From: a virus
Taxonomy: Duplodnaviria > Heunggongvirae > Uroviricota > Caudoviricetes > Ackermannviridae
IMG/VR virus record: IMGVR_UViG_2974596396_000001
Coordinates: 88,254 to 152,253 of that record
Length of the DNA stretch: 64,000 nucleotides
Direction: 5' to 3' (one strand)
Part shown: positions 887 through 61,197 of the stretch, one piece after another
Layout of the letters: the number at the start of each line of letters is the position of its first letter
How positions within the stretch are numbered: position 1 is the first letter of the stretch
The notes under the pieces: generated by a model
The model's database searches: none
What the model was told of the DNA's origin: nothing
Seen by the model: the letters and a program-made list of their open reading frames with translations, nothing else
Made by a program: the position numbers and the translations under genes

Positions 887-894
887 ACTAAATA
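887..894 (+). promoter_or_regulatory. Candidate late-promoter variant ACTAAATA
   Basis: ACTAAATA lies 28 nt upstream of the ATG at 922. An identical octamer sits at the same spacing before gp22. Confidence 0.3.
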
Positions 895-921
895 TAGAAA
901 ATTAATTCGGAGATCAAAATC

Positions 922-6067: not shown

Positions 6068-6442
6068 ATGAGCAATTTACCACTGCTTCAAGTCGGCGAT
6101 GTGTTCGTTCTCACAGAAGAAATGACCATTGAAACTCAGGTGCCTAAACATTTCTTGTATTCTAATTGCAAGGGAGATTGGCAAACGGACTCTGGTTATA
6201 TCACCCCTGAGGGATTCTTCGGTTACATGCAAGGGCATTATGTCGTTACCAAAACAGCTCTACAAGGAGGTAGCGCTGGTCACGACCCATACCCAGACGG
6301 TCATCATGTTTGGGCACAGCATACCGAAAATGAACGCATCAGGATCTGTTTTTATCAGACAGGCAGCTTCAGAAACATGCACCGTAACGTTCCAGTAGTC
6401 GGAAAAGCCAAGGCGCAAACATGGACTTGGGAGAAATTATGA
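6068..6442 (+). CDS. Hypothetical protein
   Basis: ORF with RBS. Confidence 0.5.
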   Translation: MSNLPLLQVGDVFVLTEEMTIETQVPKHFLYSNCKGDWQTDSGYITPEGFFGYMQGHYVVTKTALQGGSAGHDPYPDGHHVWAQHTENERIRICFYQTGSFRNMHRNVPVVGKAKAQTWTWEKL

Positions 6443-6675: not shown

Positions 6676-6696
6676 ATTTAAAATTTATTCAATAAA

Positions 6697-6723
6697 CGGG
6701 GTTTACTTCTTCAATAAACCCCG
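6697..6723 (+). terminator. Hairpin terminator that encloses the -35 of the next promoter
   Basis: 8-bp stem CGGGGTTT / AAACCCCG with an 11-nt loop. Confidence 0.5.
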
Positions 6724-6729
6724 TATACT
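6701..6729 (+). promoter_or_regulatory. Host sigma70-type early promoter
   Basis: -35 GTTTAC/TTTACT, 16-17 nt spacer, -10 TATACT. AT-rich upstream sequence. The same architecture occurs at 43072 and 55615. Confidence 0.6.
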
Positions 6730-6778
6730 TCATTCCATAAGCAGCACAACACTGACTCTGAAATGAAGGAACTACACC

Positions 6779-7075
6779 ATGAACAACATGCCAACCACCA
6801 AAACTGCTCTGGAAATCGATTCTCGCTTTATCGTTGAAGCATGGGCCAACAGCCAAAACTCTTATGTGTATTCCCTTTATGTCGGTGACACTTATGTTTC
6901 TTGCCTCGGCATCGACGGCTCCAAGAACGAGCACGGCGTGAACGAGCGCTATACCAAAAAGCAGGCTATCGCTGATGCTACCAAATTCGCGACTGACATT
7001 CTGGGTCGCATCAATGCGGGTAAACCGTACAAACGCGGTGAAAAGGGCTATGTCACCCAATTGCTTGGTGCTTGA
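6779..7075 (+). CDS. Early hypothetical protein, first gene after the early promoter
   Basis: GAAGGA RBS. About 50 nt downstream of the promoter. Confidence 0.5.
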   Translation: MNNMPTTKTALEIDSRFIVEAWANSQNSYVYSLYVGDTYVSCLGIDGSKNEHGVNERYTKKQAIADATKFATDILGRINAGKPYKRGEKGYVTQLLGA

Positions 7076-7950: not shown

Positions 7951-8122
7951 TATGCTGCAATTAATTTTGATTCTTTGTGTCGCTTTTACCATGTACTTTC
8001 TGGCGCGAATCAGTTATATCACACTAAATGATCTGAAAGATACACCACGCGAACCTAAATTTATATTTCTAAAGAAATACACCAAAAAGTTCTGCGAGAA
8101 TTTTATCTATCATCTTCCGTGA
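7951..8122 (+). CDS. Small membrane protein (1 TM)
   Basis: Inner ATG of ORF 7868 with GGAG RBS. Hydrophobic N-terminus. Confidence 0.35.
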
Positions 8123-8123
8123 T

Positions 8124-8131
8124 TATAAATA
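8124..8131 (+). promoter_or_regulatory. T4-type late promoter TATAAATA
   Basis: Exact TATAAATA 22 nt upstream of the ATG at 8154. A hairpin ACCCCCAAAATTGGGGGT follows it. Confidence 0.55.
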
Positions 8132-8153
8132 CCCCCAAAATTGGGGGTATTTT

Positions 8154-8882
8154 ATGAACGCACAAATCTACGATGTCCTTTCCTCTGGTAATGCATTTAG
8201 CAACCCGCTTCCGTCCCTCTCCGGACCCTCACAGGATTTAATCACCAGTGGTAGTACCAATATACCATTGATAACTGCCAACGCGACTCCGGAGATGCAG
8301 GCGGCTATGGTTGCTGGTGGACTAACACCAGAAAAACTCACAGCAGCCACCACCATGTATAGCGCCGCCAACACGGGGATAACGACACTGAACACATATG
8401 GCGACCAAAGTATCAATGACGCGTATTCTCGCATCGGTACTTCCGTGTCATACAAATCAGGTCTGAAGGGTATATCACGAGAGCCAAACAATTGTGATTT
8501 GATCAACAAGGCTTTTGGTGTTGTTCAGGATTTAGGACGCCAATGGCTGAATGCTATGGAAGGTGCTCTACAGACCGTAACAAACAAGATATCGGAATTG
8601 TATGACATGATTATGGAAGGTGCCTCAGAAGGGATGGCAAAACTACAGCAATTGGCTGCTGAAGTAACAGGACATATCAATGAGGCAATAACCGCCGTCA
8701 ATGGAGTTATAAACGATATCACCGATGGGATAGCTGCAGAACTTGCTCATATTGAAAGTATGATCAAAGAATGTCTAAACTTCTCTTTTGCGAATGTTCT
8801 TGGAGAATGGGCTAAAGATCTCTGTGCTGGAGGCGTTATTGATAAAATAGGGACTCCAGAATTAAAAGAGTCCCTGAAATAA
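8154..8882 (+). CDS. Late protein, probably virion structural
   Basis: Lies downstream of a consensus late promoter. No recognisable catalytic motif. Confidence 0.5.
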   Translation: MNAQIYDVLSSGNAFSNPLPSLSGPSQDLITSGSTNIPLITANATPEMQAAMVAGGLTPEKLTAATTMYSAANTGITTLNTYGDQSINDAYSRIGTSVSYKSGLKGISREPNNCDLINKAFGVVQDLGRQWLNAMEGALQTVTNKISELYDMIMEGASEGMAKLQQLAAEVTGHINEAITAVNGVINDITDGIAAELAHIESMIKECLNFSFANVLGEWAKDLCAGGVIDKIGTPELKESLK

Positions 8883-13215: not shown

Positions 13216-13553
13216 ATATTACTCTCGTGTGTTGGTTAACATGACTACATATTATTTCGCGCCCATGTTTAGACCAAATTAAATTAATTTTGCTGTTGAA
13301 TAAAAACTGCTTTCCTGTTGAACAAATGGCGTGGTATTATACGAGTTGTGAGCTTTGCGAGCAACGAGTATTATCACGAGCGAAGCGAGTAGACTAATAA
13401 AGAAAGGTTTTATTAAAACAGAATACTATAAATGCCGTCAGGCATTTATTTACCGCGCGTAGGGCATTAACACTTGTTCTATAACTACAAACACGCGATA
13501 CTAATTTGCGTCAAACATGACTTGAACCCCACTATATTTTGAGGATATAAACA

Positions 13554-14222
13554 ATGCAAGAGATCACTCTCTCCGAACGCACTTTACAACTGCTGGCTAA
13601 CTTTGAAACCATTTGCCCTTCTATCGTTCTGGCACCTGGTAAAAAGCTGCGCACGGTTAACGATTCCAGCACCGTCATCGCTATTGCCGATATTGACGAA
13701 GACTTCCCGTTTGAATTTCCTATTCTGGATCTGACCAAACTTCTGGCCATTCAGCGTCTGCCTAGTTTCAAAGGCGGTAAAATCGAAATGTCGGAAGACC
13801 ACATTTTACTGAAAGGTGAAAACTCTCAGCTGCAATTCTGGCGCTCAGCAAAAGAATTGACTGTCGTTCCTGCCGACAGCATTGATCTCCCGTCCGTTGA
13901 ATTCGAAGCGACGGTCACTCCTGAAAAAATGAAAGAGCTGACTCGCGCCTGTTCCACCCTGGGCCACAAAACTGTTCGTCTGGTCGCCAGCGGCGGTAAA
14001 ACTCGTCTGGTTGGTACGACTACGACTATCGATAATTCCAACGATTACACCGTTGAATTGGGTGAAACTGCTCTGGCTGATTTCGCTATGCCTGTCGACG
14101 TTGTTAACCTGAAAATGATCGAAGGCAACTATGTGATCCGCGCCTGTGCTGAAATGCAGCTTGTCAACTTCCAGTCGGCCGATGGCACCATCAACTACTA
14201 CGTTGGTATGCAGCTGGATTAA
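13554..14222 (+). CDS. 45: Sliding clamp gp45
   Basis: Length and N-terminal pattern match T4 gp45 (L-NF-I). Followed by gp44 and gp62. Confidence 0.85.
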   Translation: MQEITLSERTLQLLANFETICPSIVLAPGKKLRTVNDSSTVIAIADIDEDFPFEFPILDLTKLLAIQRLPSFKGGKIEMSEDHILLKGENSQLQFWRSAKELTVVPADSIDLPSVEFEATVTPEKMKELTRACSTLGHKTVRLVASGGKTRLVGTTTTIDNSNDYTVELGETALADFAMPVDVVNLKMIEGNYVIRACAEMQLVNFQSADGTINYYVGMQLD

Positions 14223-14253
14223 TCAATAACGCTTCGGCGCTTTATTATCGGCG

Positions 14254-17099: not shown

Positions 17100-17123
17100 T
17101 ATAATCCGTTATTCACTAAACAA

Positions 17124-17150
17124 CAGAGGCTATAATGGCCTCTGTTTTTG
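17124..17150 (+). terminator. Rho-independent terminator
   Basis: CAGAGGC-TATAATG-GCCTCTG followed by TTTTT. Confidence 0.75.
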
Positions 17151-19353: not shown

Positions 19354-19578
19354 ATGAGCTGGAAATTGTTCAAACTGCGTAAAGCGACTGATGAGTTTCT
19401 TCTGAAAGCCCGTATGGAAGGACGTCTCGTGTACACTCCTTACCCAGGCACTACTCGGTTTTGCAGTACGCTGAGGAAACAGAAATCAGTTTCTGGGCCG
19501 AGACGTTTGATGAACCAGGGTATGTTGTCTTTTAACACGGGAGACCACAGACCGTGTGATGGCGGTCGGATTATCTGA
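19354..19578 (+). CDS. Hypothetical small protein
   Basis: ORF with RBS. Confidence 0.35.
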   Translation: MSWKLFKLRKATDEFLLKARMEGRLVYTPYPGTTRFCSTLRKQKSVSGPRRLMNQGMLSFNTGDHRPCDGGRII

Positions 19579-19695
19579 ATAAAGAATCGCGTTACTTCGT
19601 TCTTCAATAACTTTTTCAACGTATATATTGACCTCACTTTAACGACGCGCCCCGATAAGGGCGCTCACTTTGAACTGAAACAGGAAGACTATACC

Positions 19696-23439: not shown

Positions 23440-23467
23440 GCTCTGAATAATATTTCAACCTGTCAAT

Positions 23468-23552
23468 AATATAATGCCCGGTTATATTCAATCGGGCATT
23501 TTATTATATTAATTGGCATCAATACCGCCTGTCGTAATATAATAGTCCCATG
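23468..23552. promoter_or_regulatory. Cluster of three TAATATAAT boxes (+,-,+) flanking an ATGCCCG/CGGGCAT hairpin
   Basis: Direct reading. Each box contains a perfect TATAAT. Upstream of the vWA operon. Confidence 0.4.
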
Positions 23553-26329: not shown

Positions 26330-26338
26330 TAATCCATG

Positions 26339-26370
26339 AAATCCCCAATAATTATTGGGGATTTTTACTT
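26339..26370 (+). terminator. Rho-independent terminator
   Basis: AAATCCCCAATAATTATTGGGGATTT followed by TTT. Confidence 0.8.
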
Positions 26371-26378
26371 TCAAAGGC

Positions 26379-26407
26379 TTTACTTGAATAAACATTTGCC
26401 GTATTAT
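26379..26407 (+). promoter_or_regulatory. Host sigma70-type early promoter
   Basis: -35 TTTACT, 17-nt spacer, -10 TATTAT. Confidence 0.5.
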
Positions 26408-26460
26408 TCAATAACTGGCTAACGTGGGGTTGGTCAGAAATTGAATAGGTTGATTATAAC

Positions 26461-26700: not shown

Positions 26701-26759
26701 TTCTATAAATTATGGCGGGGTATGATTACCCCGTCGATTTGAAATGCAGGAACTATACC

Positions 26760-27215
26760 ATGACTCGCATCAATGTTATTCCCGTTGAATCTCTTTGCGA
26801 CCAACACCTCCTTGCCGAGTATAAAGAACTTGCGCCTGTTGTCCTTAACGTGGTGAATGGAAAACGCCGTAATCTCAAGGGCGCTCCAAAGCAGTACAAA
26901 CTCAACGAAGGTCATGTGCTGTTCTTCCGCGACAAACTCATTTATCTGATCGAGCGTTACGATCAGCTTGTTGCCGAACTGATTTCTCGTGGGTATGTTG
27001 TCAACTATCCTTCGCTCCGCAATCAGGTGACGTCCGACAATCGACAGGAACTCGCGATCTATTTGAACGATTACCAACCGACCCAGGCCGCAGTAGAAGA
27101 GAATGCCGAGCGCATTGTCGAACGTCTGAATGGCATGGGCAAGATCACGTATAACAGAACACCAGTAGATTCATCCTACATGGTGAACGTTATGAAACAA
27201 ACATTCCAATTTTGA
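26760..27215 (+). CDS. denV: Endonuclease V (pyrimidine-dimer DNA glycosylase) DenV
   Basis: MTRINVIPVESLCDQHLLAEYKELA-NGKR-GHV-FF-DKL is collinear with T4 DenV, [24 protein letters not shown]. Confidence 0.85.
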   Translation: MTRINVIPVESLCDQHLLAEYKELAPVVLNVVNGKRRNLKGAPKQYKLNEGHVLFFRDKLIYLIERYDQLVAELISRGYVVNYPSLRNQVTSDNRQELAIYLNDYQPTQAAVEENAERIVERLNGMGKITYNRTPVDSSYMVNVMKQTFQF

Positions 27216-27514: not shown

Positions 27515-27673
27515 TTGGATAATGAATTAATTTGGGAAATTGTAAAGGGTATCCTGGTGATAATCGGAGTCATCTTCGTATTGGGTGGTAATTTCTTCTA
27601 TCTGTTATTCCGGTTTGAACATAAGCGGAGGGAACGACAAGAATCGAGAAGAAAAGATAGGTGGATGAACTAA
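27515..27673 (+). CDS. Possible small single-TM protein with a non-ATG (TTG) start
   Basis: 52-codon frame WEIVKGILVIIGVIFVLGGNFFYLLF followed by a basic tail. Start codon uncertain. Confidence 0.2.
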   Translation: MDNELIWEIVKGILVIIGVIFVLGGNFFYLLFRFEHKRRERQESRRKDRWMN

Positions 27674-28155: not shown

Positions 28156-28234
28156 ATACGATAGTTTATTGAAACCCTTTACTCAACATGGTGACAGCCC
28201 TATCATTTTATCCAATGAAATAAGGAGAATCACC

Positions 28235-29290: not shown

Positions 29291-30082
29291 ATGATCATTA
29301 CCAAAAAGATCGCTGAGGCGATCGTTGAAAAGAATAAAATGTTCGCACCTAACAAAGCAAAGGTTATTCTGATCCATGATGATGGTCGCGTGGTCTTCGC
29401 TGAAAAATTTGAGCAAGGGTGCGCTTTCTGGTTTGCAGACACGATGCGTGAAAGCAAGCTACAGGGCATCATTTACAAATTAACTCTGGTTGCCAAGCGC
29501 AACGACCAGGGTGACTGGGTTACGGTTTGTGATTTCAGCTCCAAGGTTGATACTCGACCAAAATCTCGCCAAGAGAGAATTCTGGAAGCTCAGGAAAAAC
29601 TTGTTGCTGCTCGTACTTCACCAGTCATTAAGCCAGCAGTCATCTCCCCTTCTATTGATCTGCCGCCTGTCAGCCAAAAGGCTGTTGAGCAATATGCAGA
29701 AAAACGAAAAGAAGAACCCGTGAAGTCTCCGGTTGAGAATAAAGAAGAATCTGAATTTATTTCAATCAGGCAGTTATGTCCGCAAGAAAGGCGATTTTCT
29801 TCACCAAATGATTTATTCGTGTCTTTCCGGTCTAATGGGAAGATTATATTGTGCAAAACCCTACGGGAACAATTGCAGTGGCCTAACATCAATATGATGG
29901 TGAGTCGGAACTTCAAACGATTCGCAATCGGTGAAGGTAAAGATTATCCTGTTAATAAGAGCGGAACATATGCAAATCGTCATATGTGCGACAAATTGTC
30001 TTTCCCAAACGATTCTGGCACTATTCGTGTTCGTTTAGAATGGGATGAAAGTTTGAACATGTATGTCGGTGATATAAAATAA
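29291..30082 (+). CDS. Hypothetical protein
   Basis: ATG (or GTG at 29288). Confidence 0.5.
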   Translation: MIITKKIAEAIVEKNKMFAPNKAKVILIHDDGRVVFAEKFEQGCAFWFADTMRESKLQGIIYKLTLVAKRNDQGDWVTVCDFSSKVDTRPKSRQERILEAQEKLVAARTSPVIKPAVISPSIDLPPVSQKAVEQYAEKRKEEPVKSPVENKEESEFISIRQLCPQERRFSSPNDLFVSFRSNGKIILCKTLREQLQWPNINMMVSRNFKRFAIGEGKDYPVNKSGTYANRHMCDKLSFPNDSGTIRVRLEWDESLNMYVGDIK

Positions 30083-30095
30083 TTCAATAACATTA

Positions 30096-30125
30096 GGGCG
30101 GTTATTATTAAACCGCCTTTTATTT
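30096..30125 (+). terminator. Rho-independent terminator
   Basis: GGCGGTT-ATTATTA-AACCGCC followed by TTTTATTT. Confidence 0.7.
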
Positions 30126-32404: not shown

Positions 32405-32487
32405 ACGCTTTATTCAATAATATTTGTTAGGTAAGCTGTAGTCCTCTTGTAGTGAAACATTGTAAACAACTAACTGGAGTAATCCGA

Positions 32488-41695: not shown

Positions 41696-41730
41696 AAGGG
41701 CACTAAATATCACGTGCCCTTTATCTTTTA
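41696..41730 (+). terminator. Rho-independent terminator
   Basis: AAGGGCAC-N10-GTGCCCTT followed by TATCTTTT. Confidence 0.7.
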
Positions 41731-41788: not shown

Positions 41789-42403
41789 ATGACGATGACA
41801 ACGTTGAAGGCCATGGCCTTGTCCGTGACCTTTACCATTGCCAGCGGGAATGTGCACGCTTCCCAAAATACAAGTCAATGTGTTTATGATTTCTCTGAGC
41901 AACAACTTAATACGCTGGCAACCGCCTATCACATAGGCAAGACGCAAGACCTTGGTTACACTCTGGCCGCCATATCTTGGCGAGAGAGTCGCGCTGGTGA
42001 AGATGTAGTGTCAATGCGATACGGCCTCAAGGCGGCCAACATGGGAGCCTTTCAGAACAAGGTGAAGACAGTTGGTGATCGCGAAGGTTGTAAGAATCGC
42101 AAGTGTTATGCCAATGTCGCCATAAAGTTGCTGACCGACCAAGAATATGCCGCGCAAGCCGCCCTCGATGAGATGCAGTTCTGGCTGGCCTATCACAATC
42201 AGAATATCCGCAAATCTCTCTCCTCTTACAATGCTGGCTTCGCCCGTAATCCCGCATCGAACGCCTATGCCGCCGACGTCGTGAAGAAAGCTAAATATCT
42301 TCAGAAATGTGTGTCCTTCAAAGGCCAGACCATCTCCGAGGTAGATCCTCAGGTGATCGCCATGAACAAGCGCACGATAGAGAAACTGAAGAGGACAAGA
42401 TAA
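41789..42403 (+). CDS. Secreted lytic transglycosylase-like (SLT domain) protein
   Basis: Signal peptide. WRESRAG (catalytic E-S) and SYNAG (AYNAG motif). Confidence 0.45.
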   Translation: MTMTTLKAMALSVTFTIASGNVHASQNTSQCVYDFSEQQLNTLATAYHIGKTQDLGYTLAAISWRESRAGEDVVSMRYGLKAANMGAFQNKVKTVGDREGCKNRKCYANVAIKLLTDQEYAAQAALDEMQFWLAYHNQNIRKSLSSYNAGFARNPASNAYAADVVKKAKYLQKCVSFKGQTISEVDPQVIAMNKRTIEKLKRTR

Positions 42404-43041
42404 TGAACATCACTCCATCTCAGACCGGATATGAACATATCTTGGTCTTCATCGCTCTACAGGGCGCGAAGGAAGGCATCATCGTATCCGAGTACTCGGG
42501 GACTGTGCGCCTTGCCGATTATGTCGCACCCGAGGCGTTCATTAAGAAGTGCATTGATGCGTGGTGCCTCTATGCCCTCGGCACGTATCCTGCTCCTCCT
42601 GAGGGCGAGCTGTTGTTTACTGTACCGACTCCGGCTGCTGGTGATACGGATGCGATCTTTGCCGATATGCTGGCCAAGGGGTATCTGGTGTATGATATCA
42701 CTCACGATGTCTATTCCTTCACCTCCCTGAACACTGTGTTTGGATTCACCATCACATCTGAAGCCAACATCCCTGACTGGGGCATCTTGGCGTGGGGCGT
42801 TGACGGCCTGGGCGCAACCTATGCATCATCTGATGTCGGTCCTGTTCTGATTGATGATGGTGTAACCATGGAGCAGTACCTTGCCCAGTTCCCTCAACAC
42901 AACATCACAGGCAGCGACATCATTTTGGTTCAGCCTGGTGCTATCGCTCTCCCTCGTTTGGTGGATGGCTGGAAGTCCCAGCTGAAGGACATCATTGCCG
43001 GAATCAGATTCCATATTCCCATCGTGAACCCAGCACCGTAA
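42403..43041 (+). CDS. Hypothetical protein
   Basis: TAATG overlap start. Confidence 0.5.
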   Translation: MNITPSQTGYEHILVFIALQGAKEGIIVSEYSGTVRLADYVAPEAFIKKCIDAWCLYALGTYPAPPEGELLFTVPTPAAGDTDAIFADMLAKGYLVYDITHDVYSFTSLNTVFGFTITSEANIPDWGILAWGVDGLGATYASSDVGPVLIDDGVTMEQYLAQFPQHNITGSDIILVQPGAIALPRLVDGWKSQLKDIIAGIRFHIPIVNPAP

Positions 43042-43055
43042 AAATAATTCAATAA

Positions 43056-43080
43056 AAGGGGCGAAAGCCCCTTTACTTCT
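43056..43080 (+). terminator. Hairpin terminator fused to the next promoter
   Basis: AAGGGGC-GAAA-GCCCCTT. The 3' arm runs into the -35 TTTACT. Confidence 0.6.
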
Positions 43081-43100
43081 TCAATATCCTTCCCTATACT
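43072..43100 (+). promoter_or_regulatory. Host sigma70-type early promoter
   Basis: TTTACT, 17-nt spacer, TATACT. The downstream sequence is almost identical to the promoter at 6701. Confidence 0.6.
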
Positions 43101-43148
43101 TCATTCCATAAGCAGTACGATACCAACTTGAAACGAAGGAGCTATATC

Positions 43149-43484
43149 ATGACACAACTCAAAAACTTCACCGCAGATGACATGTTTGCCTTCCAGGGCG
43201 CTGAGCACTTTGCTGACGGCTCCGTCCCGCGCATCTACTATTTCTCTGATGAAGAAATGGAAGATTTCTTCGCCCTGATGGAAAAGGAATACACAGAAAC
43301 TGATTTCGTCTACGTCATCCACCATGCCGAAGGGTTGTCTCTTGGTTGGACGGCCAACGGCGAGCCGGAAGAAGTGAACTTCCCTGAAGGCATCATGTCC
43401 GAGCGCGTAGAGTACCTGCTGGAAGCCCTGGATCCACACACCCTCCCACTCTGGGCGATGTCAGTTGCCCAAATTCAAAAATAA
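43149..43484 (+). CDS. Early, strongly acidic small protein; a candidate DNA mimic or anti-restriction protein
   Basis: AAGGAG RBS. About 24 Asp/Glu against 7 Lys/Arg in 111 aa. First gene after the early promoter. Confidence 0.5.
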   Translation: MTQLKNFTADDMFAFQGAEHFADGSVPRIYYFSDEEMEDFFALMEKEYTETDFVYVIHHAEGLSLGWTANGEPEEVNFPEGIMSERVEYLLEALDPHTLPLWAMSVAQIQK

Positions 43485-46071: not shown

Positions 46072-46102
46072 AATCCCCCTAAATACAGGGGATTTCTTTT
46101 TC
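46072..46102 (+). terminator. Rho-independent terminator
   Basis: AATCCCC-N9-GGGGATT followed by TCTTTTT. Confidence 0.8.
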
Positions 46103-49075: not shown

Positions 49076-49168
49076 AACTTTTTAACTCAAAAACCTTCTC
49101 TCTAGGCCTCATTCTACGAGGCCTTTTAAAATACTTCAAAAATAATTTAAAAATTTATTGAAAAAGAC

Positions 49169-49197
49169 TTTACTCTTCAATAATCATGCACTATTAT
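49169..49197 (+). promoter_or_regulatory. Host sigma70-type early promoter
   Basis: TTTACT, 17-nt spacer, TATTAT. AT-rich upstream region. Confidence 0.5.
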
Positions 49198-49274
49198 AGT
49201 TCACATAGGGCGGTACACAACACCCCGCCGAATGAAAAGTGAAACGACCCAACTACATTATGAGGAATTACATC

Positions 49275-49763
49275 ATGGCTACTACCAAAACTCTGATCAC
49301 CAACGGCACCATCTCTTTTGAACTGAACACCGAAGTTGCAAAAGTTGAAATGTTCCGCATCGCTCAGGCAGCTGGCTTCACTGGTGGCAAAACTTCCTTC
49401 ATGAATCTGCTGAACGGCAAAGTGAAAGCGACCAACGGCTTCACCCTGGTAGAGCAGGTTGTCGTAGACAAAGCCGTGGTTGCCAAGACTGCTGACAAAG
49501 TTGGCATGCTGAAAGACCTGGGCCATGACATCCACGTTGTCGAAGCGAATACCGAAACTTACGGCACCATCGTAGTCGGTAAAGGTCGCATTCAGCTGAA
49601 CCCGCTGAACAACGGAACCTTCTCCGTGATGGTATTCCCGAAAAAGGGTTATGACAACAGTGATATCGTGAAAGCCGCTGGCGGTGAAGCGAAATCCCAG
49701 TATGTCAAAATGGGTAAACTGAGCGCCGACGCAGTAGAAACTCTGGTGAATAAACTGGCTTAA
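49275..49763 (+). CDS. Early hypothetical protein
   Basis: GAGGAA RBS. First gene after the early promoter. Confidence 0.5.
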   Translation: MATTKTLITNGTISFELNTEVAKVEMFRIAQAAGFTGGKTSFMNLLNGKVKATNGFTLVEQVVVDKAVVAKTADKVGMLKDLGHDIHVVEANTETYGTIVVGKGRIQLNPLNNGTFSVMVFPKKGYDNSDIVKAAGGEAKSQYVKMGKLSADAVETLVNKLA

Positions 49764-51813: not shown

Positions 51814-51897
51814 ATACCACACGAACTTCCCCGCCGCCTTCAATCCATGGAGGCGGTGTATAATAACAGCCTGCATAAACACAAACCGAGGATCGCT

Positions 51898-55594: not shown

Positions 55595-55618
55595 AAAGCC
55601 CCTCAATGAGGGGCTTTA
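55595..55618 (+). terminator. Hairpin terminator fused to the next promoter
   Basis: AAAGCCCCTC-AAT-GAGGGGCTTT. The 3' arm ends at the -35 TTTACT. Confidence 0.6.
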
Positions 55619-55643
55619 CTTTTGAAACCTTCCCACCTATACT
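55615..55643 (+). promoter_or_regulatory. Host sigma70-type early promoter
   Basis: TTTACT, 17-nt spacer, TATACT. Confidence 0.55.
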
Positions 55644-55693
55644 TCCCAGTAATTCATTGGCCAACGCCACAAATTGAAAGCGGGTACTACATC

Positions 55694-55927
55694 ATGACCA
55701 ACTCTGAAATATATCATGCTTCTATGCATTATCACGACCTACGCGCCCGTCCAGGACACGCCAAACAAAAGGCATTTTGGGTGGCAGAACTCAGATTACG
55801 CCGTGCTGTCGTTAACCACCAAATAATCATGAATCGGAAAAACGACAAATCACCGTTGTTGGCAGATTCTTATCTTGAACTCCGCACAGCCTATGAACAA
55901 GCCAAACAGCACGTAATAGGAGCATAA
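55694..55927 (+). CDS. Early hypothetical basic protein
   Basis: First ATG downstream of the promoter. ORF 55622 begins upstream of the -10 and is too long at its 5' end. Confidence 0.4.
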   Translation: MTNSEIYHASMHYHDLRARPGHAKQKAFWVAELRLRRAVVNHQIIMNRKNDKSPLLADSYLELRTAYEQAKQHVIGA

Positions 55928-56391: not shown

Positions 56392-56730
56392 ATGTACAAA
56401 TTCCCGATATTAGAAACAGTGTACTCTGTTCACAAAAAGGAAGGTCCATTATTTGAAAATTTGGATATTCTGTTAAAGGAAAATGTCCGTATCCCTCTGG
56501 TTCTAAAGGGAAAGCAAATAGGATATAGCCATGACTGCCAAATAATGCGTTCTGAAGGCACCGACGTCTTACGCATCCGTCTAACATTTGTGTTGACAGG
56601 TAATCTGGACGGTATGGTGGTTAATCTGAAACCAACCACCATAGTCCACAGAACGGGTGGGAAAATATTATATCGTTTATTAACTCATTTTGAGTTGGTG
56701 ACAAAATGCTCTGCCACGGACGTTCTTTAA
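56392..56730 (+). CDS. Hypothetical protein
   Basis: Translationally coupled to the previous gene. Confidence 0.45.
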   Translation: MYKFPILETVYSVHKKEGPLFENLDILLKENVRIPLVLKGKQIGYSHDCQIMRSEGTDVLRIRLTFVLTGNLDGMVVNLKPTTIVHRTGGKILYRLLTHFELVTKCSATDVL

Positions 56731-58801: not shown

Positions 58802-58821
58802 TAGTCAATTAGAATCATGTG

Positions 58822-58830
58822 ATATTTATG
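58822..58830 (-). promoter_or_regulatory. Candidate late promoter (CATAAATAT) for the gp5-like gene
   Basis: Minus-strand ATAAATA about 20 nt upstream of the start at 58801. One mismatch to TATAAATA. Confidence 0.3.
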
Positions 58831-59135
58831 GCGGGGATTTGAAATCTGTCGAATAATATATTATAGGAAGCTCTGCTTCCGTTCAACCTTTATTCTTTTC
58901 GTTCCTACTCGCTGAAGCTCGTAACACCGCCTTGACAGGCAGTCCCATTCCAATGCCATGGAGGCATAAAGGCGAGGAAAATACTGTACACCTCAGAACA
59001 TGCGTAGAAAAGCATTATTTTTGTTTCAAAACAAATTCAAAACAGATTTACACAACATTCACATCAGGAACAATGGTGTTATAGCAATTTCGGGTTAAAC
59101 AATCCTTTCTTAAACGGTAATACAGGTAAGCAAAG

Positions 59136-59165
59136 AAAACCCCACATTACGTGGGGTTGGAAGAT
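59136..59165 (-). terminator. Rho-independent terminator (minus strand)
   Basis: AACCCCACGTAATGTGGGGTT followed by TTCTTTG on the minus strand. Terminates gene 59308-60111. Confidence 0.65.
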
Positions 59166-61148: not shown

Positions 61149-61160
61149 TCCGGTCTAAAT

Positions 61161-61197
61161 ACCCATAACACAATGAAACTTCGTTATGGGTATTTTT
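61161..61197 (+). terminator. Rho-independent terminator
   Basis: ACCCATAAC-N14-GTTATGGGT followed by ATTTTT. Confidence 0.7.

Follow-up and report, generated by a model that had tools for sequence, protein, structure and literature searches.

At positions 6688-6729 of the DNA analysed here, a hairpin resembling a rho-independent terminator is fused to a promoter-like sequence, and similar fusions recur elsewhere. What are these repeated units, and does the octamer TTCAATAA that accompanies them belong to the same promoters? The source of the window (the whole stretch analysed, 64,000 nt) is Salmonella phage Se-J (Kuttervirus, Ackermannviridae; Vi1-like), and it was compared with about 20 related phages from three genera, including Dickeya phage Coodle and Klebsiella phage 0507-KN2-1. 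In our assessment, the three main modules and three looser copies are probably terminator-promoter cassettes which start genes and serve as shuffling joints, and TTCAATAA is chiefly the box of a second promoter class. We refer to the two putative promoter types as class A, with TTTACT as the -35, a 16-17 nt spacer and TATACT, TATTAT or TATCAT as the -10 hexamer (six copies in the window), and class B, TTCAATAA-N12-TAnnnT without a -35 hexamer. All support is computational, and promoter activity, termination, timing and a factor reading the box are predicted from it.

Class A modules and their hairpins

When the coordinates were rechecked, the three main modules described in an earlier note on this DNA were found in place, and the two looser copies that it had listed proved genuine (TTTACT-N17-TATTAT at 26379-26407 and 49169-49197). 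Its list of five had missed a sixth copy, TTTACT-N17-TATCAT at 28178-28206. The 17-nt spacer that it had ascribed to the promoters occurs at 43072 and 55615, but the 6702 promoter has 16 nt, and the gene start placed at 49275 is actually at 49260. The class A features of the window are the following:

6688-6695, + strand: module 1, upstream box TTCAATAA, at about -48 to -41, within the near-palindrome TTATTCAATAA
6696-6724, + strand: module 1, hairpin ACGGGGTTTA / TAAACCCCGT with a 9-nt loop
6702-6729, + strand: module 1, putative class A promoter, TTTACT 6702-6707, 16-nt spacer, TATACT 6724-6729
6710-6717, + strand: module 1, spacer octamer TTCAATAA
6735-6781, + strand: module 1, start region CCATAAGCAGCA as predicted from the -10 position, leader, RBS GAAGGAAC, ATG 6779
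43048-43055, + strand: module 2, upstream box TTCAATAA, invariant in 19 relatives
43055-43074, + strand: module 2, terminator-like hairpin AAAGGGGC-GAAA-GCCCCTTT, whose TTT tail forms the first bases of the -35
43072-43100, + strand: module 2, putative class A promoter, TTTACT 43072-43077, N17, TATACT 43095-43100
43080-43087, + strand: module 2, spacer box TTCAATAT
43106-43151, + strand: module 2, conserved +1 region (predicted) CCATAAGCAGTA, then leader, RBS, ATG 43149
55595-55617, + strand: module 3, putative terminator hairpin AAAGCCCCTC-AAT-GAGGGGCTTT with a T-rich tail after it
55615-55643, + strand: module 3, putative class A promoter, TTTACT 55615-55620, N17, TATACT 55638-55643; ATG 55694
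26338-26414, + strand: looser class A copy, hairpin 26338-26365, TTTACT 26379, N17, TATTAT 26402-26407; ATG 26461
26407-26414, + strand: TTCAATAA overlapping the -10 of the 26379 copy; cassette kept in Coodle
49104-49197, + strand: looser class A copy, hairpin 49104-49124, TTTACT 49169, N17, TATTAT 49192-49197; ATG 49260
49155-49162 and 49176-49183, + strand: boxes in the 49169 copy, inverted TTATTGAA and TTCAATAA, respectively; cassette kept in the Klebsiella phage
28166-28206, + strand: sixth class A copy, TTATTGAA 28166-28173, TTTACT 28178, N17, TATCAT 28201-28206; ATG 28235

The +1 regions at 6724 and 43095, earlier called near-identical, share the same 21-mer TATACTTCATTCCATAAGCAG, and CATAAGCAGTAC in the start region of module 2 is invariant across 19 sequences. 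An A/T-rich stretch lies 5' of the promoters (aaatttaaaatttattcaataa at 6702, aaaaataattcaataaaa at 43072 and aaaataatttaaaaatttattgaaaaag at 49169), and in class A cassettes the RBS GAAGGAAC is separated from the ATG by 7-8 nt. Gene duplication behind the near-identical 6702 and 43072 modules was ruled out, as the downstream proteins are unrelated and not paralogues.

Chance as the origin of the class A pattern is excluded. An exact-pattern scan of the window for TTTACT-N15-19-TATAYT gave 3 matches, all of them N16/17-TATACT, against 0.01 expected. In the 160-kb genome, eight of the nine sites with full TTTACT and at least five of six -10 matches are intergenic and directed at the next gene. 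The TTTACT hexamer agrees with the sigma-70 -35 consensus at 4 of 6 positions, and generic sigma-70 and terminator scans were non-discriminating (43 and 42 promoter-like sites against 35 and 33 expected).

The modules are kept in about 20 related phages of three genera. In the 17-19 relatives compared, neither the -35 nor the -10 hexamer ever changes, while the loops of the hairpins and some of the spacer drift. Spacer length scored constant across the relatives, yet the 43072 spacer outside the box varies in both sequence and length; in the 55615 module the hexamers do not vary, and the spacer is unconstrained in sequence but always 17 nt long. The 6702 promoter is identical in 7 relatives and in Coodle, where the 28178 copy is conserved as well.

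The module hairpins have folding energies between -12 and -19 kcal/mol and z-scores from -3.2 down to -5.1. The 43055 hairpin (-14.4 kcal/mol) has a freely varying loop and a compensatory GC to AU change in its stem, and the 55595 hairpin (-16.6 kcal/mol) carries a compensatory UA to CG change in 5 of 17 relatives. The 6696 hairpin (-14 kcal/mol, z -5.1) has zero sequence variation among relatives, and thus no covariation. A good U-tract follows 55617, 26365 and 30119 (the last in a class B element, see below), but the tract is interrupted after 43074 (TTTACTTCTTC) and weak after 6724, so that a terminator function of the 6696 hairpin is doubtful. The hairpin ends 0 nt before the -35 or overlaps it at 43072 and 55615, is separated from it by 13 nt at 26379 and by 44 nt at 49169, and encloses it at 6702; no hairpin was found by folding at the 28178 copy. 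The simple hairpin finder used here missed several minus-strand cases and gives a rough count only.

The invariant hexamers, the drifting loops and spacer, the compensatory stem changes and a match to the T4/PST early-promoter consensus (discussed below) bear out the original reading of these units as promoter plus terminator. In such a cassette an A/T-rich stretch, often containing TTCAATAA or its complement, would be followed by a GC-rich stem-loop, a promoter and a leader of 35-50 nt with RBS and start codon. The stem-loop would most likely halt transcription that comes in from the preceding gene, and would make the unit independent of its upstream neighbour. The promoter, of a sigma-70 type resembling T4 early promoters (TTTACT, 16-17 bp, TATACT/TATTAT/TATCAT) and with its -35 beginning in the T-tail of the terminator, may be fired by host RNA polymerase without phage help.

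Every gene behind a class A module encodes a small protein to which no function is assigned. When these genes and candidate regulators were searched against Pfam, PHROGs and PDB sequences, just 'unknown function' or generic HTH hints came back. Gene 28235, behind the 28178 copy, has an i-spanin annotation in a relative, which is hard to reconcile with calling it simply early or anti-defence. That the module genes are expressed early, are insulated and serve host takeover or anti-defence, as suggested earlier, is thus far a proposal.

The octamer box and class B elements

The octamer does recur, as had been noticed, but the coordinates given for it were off by 1-10 nt except at 30083; the corrected starts are 6688, 6710, 43048, 26407, 32413, 19603, 49176 and 30083. 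The copy placed at 43082 is actually TTCAATAT at 43080, an inexact one. In the whole window TTCAATAA has 18 matches against 4.2 expected, and 9 of the 11 matches on the + strand fall within 4,873 nt of intergenic DNA. This intergenic coding-strand count of 9 compares with a mean of 0.32 and a maximum of 3 in 2000 dinucleotide shuffles of the intergenic DNA. Intergenic enrichment had been proposed as a check, and both the class A pattern and the octamer lie far above expectation. Among intergenic 8-mers of Se-J, TTCAATAA is the second most enriched, behind the late-promoter motif, and it is enriched in Coodle too.

The earlier note had treated the octamer as an accessory of the TTTACT promoters. 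The octamer is not mainly such an accessory: genome-wide, most copies mark a different element, TTCAATAA-N12-TAnnnT without a -35 hexamer, which seems to be a further type of promoter, apparently not described before. Between box and -10 the offset has a mode of 12 and a range of 10-14 bp, and the hexamer is TATAAT-like. In Se-J, a -10 hexamer stands at offset 10-13 in 17 of 62 intergenic boxes vs 2 of 292 boxes in coding DNA, and the corresponding fractions in Coodle are 11 of 56 and 4 of 154. We listed 39 class B sites across these two phages. Their -10 hexamer is often within a terminator hairpin loop, their target genes belong to DNA metabolism and other non-structural functions, and the start codon follows the -10 mostly by 29-42 nt. 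Sites in the window are given below:

30083-30119, + strand: putative class B, TTCAATAA, 12 nt, TATTAT 30103-30108 in the loop of terminator hairpin 30095-30119; ATG 30140
17112-17146, + strand: putative class B, TTCACTAA, 11 nt, TATAAT 17131-17136 spanning the loop of hairpin 17122-17146; ATG 17169
26701-26735, + strand: putative class B, TTCTATAA, 12 nt, TATGAT 26721-26726 in the loop of hairpin 26714-26735; upstream of a DenV-like gene, the true start of which is probably 26760
23462-23501, + strand: putative class B, GTCAATAA, 13 nt, TATATT 23483-23488 in the loop of hairpin 23473-23501
19603-19629, + strand: putative class B without a hairpin, TTCAATAA, 11-13 nt, TATATATT; ATG 19696
32413-32437, + strand: class B-like, TTCAATAA, 11 nt, TAAGCT (TAAACT in Coodle); upstream of HU-like gene 32488
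13477-13502, + strand: class B-like, TTCTATAA, 12 nt, GATACT; upstream of sliding-clamp gene 13554
14222-14248, + strand: class B-like, ATCAATAA, 13 nt, TATTAT; upstream of clamp-loader gene 14303
51832-51864, + strand: class B-like, TTCAATCC in the loop of hairpin 51832-51858, 12 nt, TATAAT 51859-51864; nrdA 51898 downstream

A role of box elements in driving tRNA genes was dropped: one element directly follows tRNA-Met and none clearly precedes a tRNA. In the Klebsiella phage a homologue of gene 29291-30082 is labelled 'RNA polymerase sigma factor', but Pfam does not bear this out.

Class B promoters, the more numerous ones, would thus consist of the box, about 12 bp and a near-consensus -10, with no -35, the -10 frequently standing in the terminator loop of the upstream gene. 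We propose that a class B transcript starting in the loop would lack the 5' arm of the hairpin and would therefore not terminate itself.

This architecture recalls T4 middle promoters, in which a MotA box is combined with a sigma-70 -10 and sigma is appropriated by AsiA/MotA (Hinton 2010, PMC2988021), and the PmSL cassettes that occur in Vibrio phage nt-1. With these, class B shares the near-consensus -10, the lack of a -35, a box of 8-9 bp centred near -30, the distance of 12 +/- 1 bp between box and -10 and the location upstream of replication and nucleotide-metabolism genes. However, the class B box is TTC(A/T)ATAA and the MotA box (a/t)(a/t)(a/t)TGCTTtA, and the class B -10 is frequently inside a terminator loop. 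Using tblastn of the T4 MotA and AsiA proteins, validated first by 100% identity on T4 records, we found no significant homologue in Se-J or Coodle; the absence of MotA/AsiA from Vi1-like phages was also reported by Kutter 2011.

A substantial, if minority, possibility is that TTCAATAA, often palindromic as TTATT(C/G)AATAA, is the site of one phage or host DNA-binding switch protein, which would activate class B at about -30 and silence class A from the spacer (-28 to -19) or from -60 to -40, so that class A cassettes would be regulated early promoters and not constitutive ones. Such a protein would account for the spacer copy at 43072, TTCAATA(A/T), which is invariant in 19 relatives when the rest of the spacer varies, for the boxes at several positions and in both orientations around class A, for the MotA-like geometry of class B and for the retention of the box in three genera with different hosts. 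On the other hand, no factor was found in Se-J or Coodle, from which MotA and AsiA are absent, and searches with two small proteins predicted to be regulators, Se-J gp005 and gp016, were uninformative. Moreover, the class A box offsets, from 6 to 10 bp, are loose for a defined operator, and A/T-rich boxes at -60 to -40 could be UP elements for the alpha subunit of RNA polymerase. More tentative, and slightly less likely, is the idea that a factor yet to be discovered reads TTCAATAA (TTATT(C/G)AATAA), runs pre-late transcription in Ackermannviridae independently of MotA/AsiA and turns early promoters off. At about -30 it would replace the -35 contact in a way resembling sigma appropriation, and a site in the spacer or UP region of early promoters would allow their shut-off. 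With many of the activated promoters nested in the loop of the preceding terminator, some 45 bp would on this view close one transcript and open the next.

It is improbable that UUCAAUAA and the hairpin instead make up a module at the 3' end of the upstream mRNA, with a role in termination, exonuclease protection, processing or protein binding, and that the resemblance to -35 and -10 is secondary. The typical position of TTCAATAA, 1-13 nt past the upstream stop codon and directly 5' of the hairpin, would suit this explanation, as would a RegB-family endoribonuclease annotated in relatives. The class B stems also carry G-U wobble pairs in the comparison with Coodle and the Klebsiella phage, which point to a function in RNA and to selection at that level. 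Nevertheless, the distance of about 12 bp between box and TAnnnT holds without an intervening hairpin (19603, 32413 and genome sites 8334 and 56620), the bases next to the -35 and -10 hexamers drift but the hexamers themselves do not, the distance from -10 to start codon is tight, and an Rfam search of the window matched no family.

Relation to T4-like cassettes and to annotated promoters

Promoter-early stem-loop (PeSL) cassettes are known from T4-like phages (Arbiol et al. 2010, PMC2839356; Comeau et al. 2014, PMC4122927), with the T4/PST early-promoter consensus TTTACW-N17-TAYWAT, which the Se-J class A promoter equals. Both kinds of cassette have an A/T-rich upstream stretch, a stem-loop just 5' of a sigma-70-like promoter and an RBS and start codon 3' of it, and both occur in several similar copies per genome with adjoining indels and gene replacements. 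They differ in that PeSL belong to T4-like Straboviridae and the Se-J cassettes to Ackermannviridae, in that the Se-J -35 overlaps the terminator tail or sits inside the hairpin, and in the conserved octamer TTCAATAA and CCATAAGCAG at the predicted +1, which the Se-J cassettes add. Furthermore, cassette recombination by mini-circle excision and integration is experimental in RB49/phi1, whereas for Se-J it is inferred.

The GenBank record HE600015 of Dickeya phage LIMEstone1 carries 'putative early promoter' features (Adriaenssens et al. 2012, PMC3296691), and the paper reports only 5 early promoters, found by T4 similarity. The 6702 orthologue is annotated as 'putative early promoter' with -35 GTTTAC and -10 TATACT; in contrast, the 43072 orthologue is annotated as a 'middle' promoter (CTT + TACGAC) and the 55615 orthologue as a terminator alone. 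The available parts of the LIMEstone1 accounts do not describe the cassette nature, the TTCAATAA box or the shuffling. Given the match to the PeSL consensus and this 'putative early promoter' annotation, we conclude that the promoter-terminator reading of class A holds.

According to Kutter et al. (2011), early promoters of Vi1-like phages were not findable by informatics, and these phages are without the T4 proteins controlling early and middle transcription; in the 2024 Ackermannviridae review promoters go unmentioned. Our searches of the literature found neither an Ackermannviridae transcriptome or start-site study nor a paper naming TTCAATAA in Vi1-like phages. The abstract of the 2012 'Viunalikevirus' genus paper reportedly mentions conserved regulatory sequences, and the box may therefore already be noted there. 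The motifs give testable positions for two putative pre-late promoter classes across a family widely used in biocontrol and therapy, point to a not-yet-known regulator, and let several start codons of the reference annotation be corrected.

Conserved loci and exchange of the flanking genes

The variable flanking genes, like the presence of the motifs, their statistical excess, the conservation pattern and the stem covariation, are demonstrated computationally. Orthologous cassettes keep the same loci across three genera, and Coodle and Klebsiella phage 0507-KN2-1 carry nearly identical modules. Downstream of them, unrelated ORF families follow in different phages: 5-6 at the 43072 module (20 phages), and 2 each at 6702 and 55615. 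The upstream contexts of a given module also differ between phages, and chimeric modules are present in relatives. Since the cassettes are near-identical within a genome and between genera while their flanking genes differ, they probably also act as, or mark, recombination joints, where small genes of unknown function would swap between phages; we infer recombination between cassettes from this pattern. Their near-100% identity could reflect recent recombination or gene conversion, and not selection on every base.

It is very improbable that the repeats were left behind by mobile DNA or are targeted by it (for example as sites for homing endonucleases or site-specific recombination) and have no transcription role of their own: the genome does contain many homing endonuclease genes, and the cassettes adjoin gene replacements and form chimeras, but they always face the downstream gene and end in an RBS and start codon, their variation is partitioned as a promoter plus hairpin predicts, orthologous cassettes occupy the same loci in three genera, and the three main modules have no adjacent homing endonuclease gene.

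A pattern scan of IMG/VR gave about 25 matches outside Ackermannviridae-sized contigs. Most of these look like chance, lying inside coding DNA; the exceptions are one Ackermannviridae fragment (L121) and one promoter-like site on two contigs (L126/L132).

Probable terminator–promoter modules of phage Se-J

The window is 100% identical to positions 88254-152253 of Salmonella phage Se-J (NC_049497.1). Se-J is Vi1-like, has a 160-kb genome and belongs to the genus Kuttervirus in the family Ackermannviridae. The content of the window runs from portal and head genes to replication, nucleotide-metabolism and lysis genes, nearly all on the + strand, and 7.6% of it is intergenic. As in T4, functional gene classes are interspersed, and the window is not a dedicated 'early region'. 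For genome-wide counts, the entire Se-J genome was reassembled from the public record.

The earlier note, made from the sequence alone, had described three main modules joining a terminator hairpin to an early promoter, as well as looser copies. The three modules lie where it placed them and the looser copies are real, while a sixth copy had been overlooked. The 17-nt spacer it proposed holds with one exception (16 nt in module 1), and the gene said to begin at 49275 starts at 49260. These class A modules, named by the start of their -35 hexamer, are laid out as follows.

Class A modules in the window
6688-6695, + strand: module 1, upstream TTCAATAA
6696-6724, + strand: module 1, hairpin with 10-bp stem and 9-nt loop, enclosing the -35 hexamer
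6702-6729, + strand: module 1, promoter with TTTACT 6702-6707, second TTCAATAA 6710-6717 and TATACT 6724-6729; ATG at 6779
43048-43055, + strand: module 2, upstream TTCAATAA
43055-43074, + strand: module 2, hairpin AAAGGGGC-GAAA-GCCCCTTT
43072-43100, + strand: module 2, promoter with TTTACT 43072-43077, TTCAATAT 43080-43087 and TATACT 43095-43100; ATG at 43149
55595-55643, + strand: module 3, hairpin 55595-55617, TTTACT 55615-55620 and TATACT 55638-55643; ATG at 55694
26379-26407 and 49169-49197, + strand: looser copies, TTTACT-N17-TATTAT
28178-28206, + strand: sixth copy, TTTACT-N17-TATCAT

The exact pattern TTTACT-N15-19-TATAYT is matched three times in the window against 0.01 expected, and the hairpins have folding energies of -12 to -19 kcal/mol (z-scores -3.2 to -5.1). 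Genome-wide, a perfect TTTACT with at least five of six -10 matches was found at nine sites; eight of these are intergenic and face a gene 29-63 nt downstream. The genome-wide TTTACT set comprises the six window sites and genome positions 2803 and 48175, and a TTTACA variant lies at genome position 155103.

Conservation and probable shuffling of the modules

The comparison drew on orthologous regions of Dickeya phage Coodle (Limestonevirus, in the other subfamily), of Klebsiella phage 0507-KN2-1 (Taipeivirus) and of 17-19 further Ackermannviridae genomes in IMG/VR. All 19 sequences of the 43072 module agree in the upstream TTCAATAA, the stem, TTTACT, the TTCAATA copy within the spacer, TATA(C/A)T and the 12-mer CATAAGCAGTAC, located where transcription is predicted to start; the bases next to the 12-mer vary. 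The loop is free (GAAA, TTT, AAAC, TTTT, TTCG and others), and the 3' half of the spacer differs in sequence and length. Both hexamers of the 55615 module are invariant, and its spacer is free in sequence and always 17 bp long. Compensatory changes occur in the stems: GGGGC/GCCCC becomes GGGAC/GTCCC, and U-A becomes C-G in 5 of 17 sequences. Such a partition of constraint is what would be expected of a promoter adjoining a structured RNA element. The 6696 hairpin has a weak U-tract and does not vary among relatives. The T-tail of the 43055 hairpin also serves as the -35 hexamer and is therefore interrupted; efficient termination there is a prediction. Two modules carry CCATAAGCAG(C/T)A where transcription is predicted to begin (6735-6746 and 43106-43117); this element or CATAAGCAGTAC might serve as an initial transcribed sequence, as an operator or as an element at the RNA 5' end.

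The 6702 and 43072 modules have in common TTTACTTCTTCAATA, the 21-mer TATACTTCATTCCATAAGCAG and a similar leader, and the proteins encoded behind them are unrelated. Across relatives, five or six unrelated ORF families follow the 43072 module. Seven phages share the 6702 module at 100% identity, and the Coodle copy is nearly identical; this module has two ORF families behind it and two different contexts in front. At the 55615 module, a 77-codon ORF is inserted or deleted exactly at the 3' border. When IMG/VR was scanned for the pattern, Ackermannviridae genomes proved to have 3-5 copies of this subtype each, spread over four kinds of locus; some copies are chimeras of a 6702-type upstream half and a 43072-type leader. 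A site TTTACTTCTTCAATAATCCGCGTATAAT in promoter-like context occurs in two IMG/VR contigs not of Ackermannviridae size (L126, 19 kb, 6139-6166; L132, 129 kb, 2219-2246), and the motif may be present in another phage group. Judged from these patterns, the modules appear to be cassettes and not merely promoters.

Promoter-early stem-loops (PeSLs) of T4-like phages combine a terminator with a promoter: an A/T-rich region and, directly before the sigma-70-like promoter, a stem-loop, with a ribosome-binding site and start codon to follow. The T4/PST consensus is TTTACW-N17-TAYWAT; PeSLs are clustered at indels and have been proposed to mediate modular shuffling (Comeau et al. 2014, PMC4122927). The Se-J modules have all PeSL features at the sequence level, and shared modules beside changing genes, together with chimeras, match the behaviour described for PeSLs, although Se-J belongs to another family and is not T4-like. 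We consider it likely that the modules work as a whole as PeSL-like cassettes. The hairpin would terminate transcription arriving from upstream, a sigma-70 promoter of the T4 early type, which overlaps the tail of the hairpin, would start it anew, and a standard leader would lead to translation of a small, exchangeable gene. The sequence data themselves show the features, their excess over chance, the pattern of conservation, covariation in the stems and the changing neighbours. Promoter activity, termination and early timing are predictions, as is any host-takeover role of the downstream genes, which all belong to families of 'unknown function'.

In kind, the core finding has precedents: T4-like phages have such elements, and a relative already has one copy annotated. 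The GenBank record of that relative, Dickeya phage LIMEstone1, marks the 6702-promoter orthologue as 'putative early promoter' (GTTTAC / TATACT), and the orthologues of the other two module loci are annotated differently. The 2012 genus paper reportedly mentions conserved regulatory sequences in its abstract. Early promoters of the Vi1-like phage CBA120 were not identifiable by informatics, and MotA, AsiA and Alt are missing there (Kutter et al. 2011); the AG3 and LIMEstone papers list just a handful of sigma-70-like sites, and a 2024 review of the family leaves promoters unmentioned. What is new is the extension of the cassettes to Ackermannviridae, with the evidence of shuffling, and TTCAATAA as the mark of a putative second, MotA-independent promoter class, with the box at about -30 and often nested in terminator loops.

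A putative promoter class with the TTCAATAA box

The octamer recurs as the earlier note claimed (18 matches in the window against 4.2 expected), although the coordinates given were off by 1-10 nt and one listed copy is actually TTCAATAT. On the coding strand, 9 of 11 copies are intergenic, where shuffled intergenic DNA averages 0.32. In an unbiased 8-mer count over oriented intergenic DNA of Se-J, TTCAATAA came next after the late-promoter-like ACTAAATA/CTAAATAC. Intergenic copies number 20 of 44 in the Se-J genome (about 1 expected), 12 of 28 in Coodle (0.8 expected) and 7, with 5 coding, in 50 kb of the Klebsiella phage. The note's observation is confirmed and its interpretation supported in part. 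The octamer mainly marks a putative second class of promoter: most copies lie away from TTTACT promoters, typically 1-13 nt past a stop codon, with a TATAAT-like hexamer about 12 bp further downstream.

The box-to-hexamer offsets peak at 12. With at most one mismatch allowed, a -10-like hexamer at offset 10-13 follows 17/62 intergenic against 2/292 coding boxes in Se-J, and 11/56 against 4/154 in Coodle. Slightly relaxed rules give 39 such class B sites in the two phages, 17 spaced exactly 12; none has a -35-like hexamer at the proper distance. In about half, the -10-like hexamer sits inside the loop of a GC-rich hairpin followed by a T-run, for example:

Class B sites with a loop-nested hexamer
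30083-30119, + strand
17112-17146, + strand
23462-23501, + strand
26701-26735, + strand

Between genera the stems show compensatory and G-U substitutions (TCATAG/CTATGA in Se-J, TCGTAG/CTACGA in Coodle), with box, spacing and loop hexamer unchanged. Genes behind class B elements include the sliding clamp, clamp loader, endonuclease V, an HU-like protein, nrdA and a thymidylate-metabolism cluster, and no virion genes.

The class B geometry, a box 12 ± 1 bp from a good -10 hexamer with no -35 hexamer, is also what defines the MotA-dependent middle promoters of T4 (Hinton 2010, PMC2988021); stem-loop cassettes with middle-type promoters (PmSLs) are described in Vibrio phage nt-1 (Comeau et al. 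2014). However, the box sequence differs, and AsiA and MotA homologues were undetectable in Se-J or Coodle with queries validated beforehand at 100% identity on T4 records. Class B is therefore not a member of the T4 middle-promoter family; on paper, it resembles a working middle promoter outside it.

Class A promoters have the box or its complement at -60 to -40 and frequently carry it a second time within the spacer, 6-10 bp away from the -10 hexamer; the spacer box of the 43072 module is conserved while the remaining spacer drifts. The box is often extended to a near-palindrome, TTATT(C/G)AATAA. On the simpler reading, the upstream boxes would be UP-like A/T tracts and the spacer box would be inherited with the cassette; another reading is a single box-binding factor, which might activate class B and repress class A. 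Candidate readers of TTCAATAA are two small predicted transcriptional regulators adjoining box-type promoters outside the window, a phrog_639 regulator (Se-J genome 2446-2757) and a phrog_13786 MarR-like winged-helix protein (8100-8306).

Probable late-promoter motif, possible regulators and annotation

The most enriched intergenic 8-mer in both Se-J and Coodle is (A)CTAAATA(C/T), with 12 of 13 ACTAAATA copies intergenic in Se-J. It precedes head and other structural genes (window 888-895, 2106-2113, 41703-41710, 46079-46086 and 61155-61162; also 11301 and 42291) and is probably a late-promoter motif read by a gp55-like sigma factor; Kutter et al. (2011) gave the late-promoter motif as unidentified for the family. 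The 263-aa protein of 29291-30082, which has no Pfam match and falls in a PHROG family of unknown function, has a homologue in Klebsiella phage phi1_175010 (PQ066595) that carries the label 'RNA polymerase sigma factor'. The gene at 41789-42403, separated from the 43072 cassette on its upstream side by one gene (42403-43041), has a homologue annotated as RegB-family endoribonuclease in Coodle and LIMEstone1, and Pfam gives a weak SLT-domain hint below the family cut-off.

Two RefSeq start codons look wrong (55622-55927 and 26712-27215). The TTG at 55622 falls inside the putative promoter, and the position of the conserved ribosome-binding site suggests the ATG at 55694 instead. For the DenV-like gene, the start at 26712 is inside a hairpin, and the alternative ATG 26760 (MTRIN...) has a conserved leader and agrees with the Coodle start. 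Three long RefSeq gaps hold ORFs on the gene strand that are probably unannotated genes: 56392-56730 (112 codons), at whose position Coodle annotates a gene, 19354-19578 (74) and 27515-27673 (52). Two non-coding regions of about 340 nt at transcription divergence points (13216-13553 and 58802-59146) are A/T-rich, contain short repeats and several -10-like hexamers, and might harbour divergent promoters or an origin of replication.
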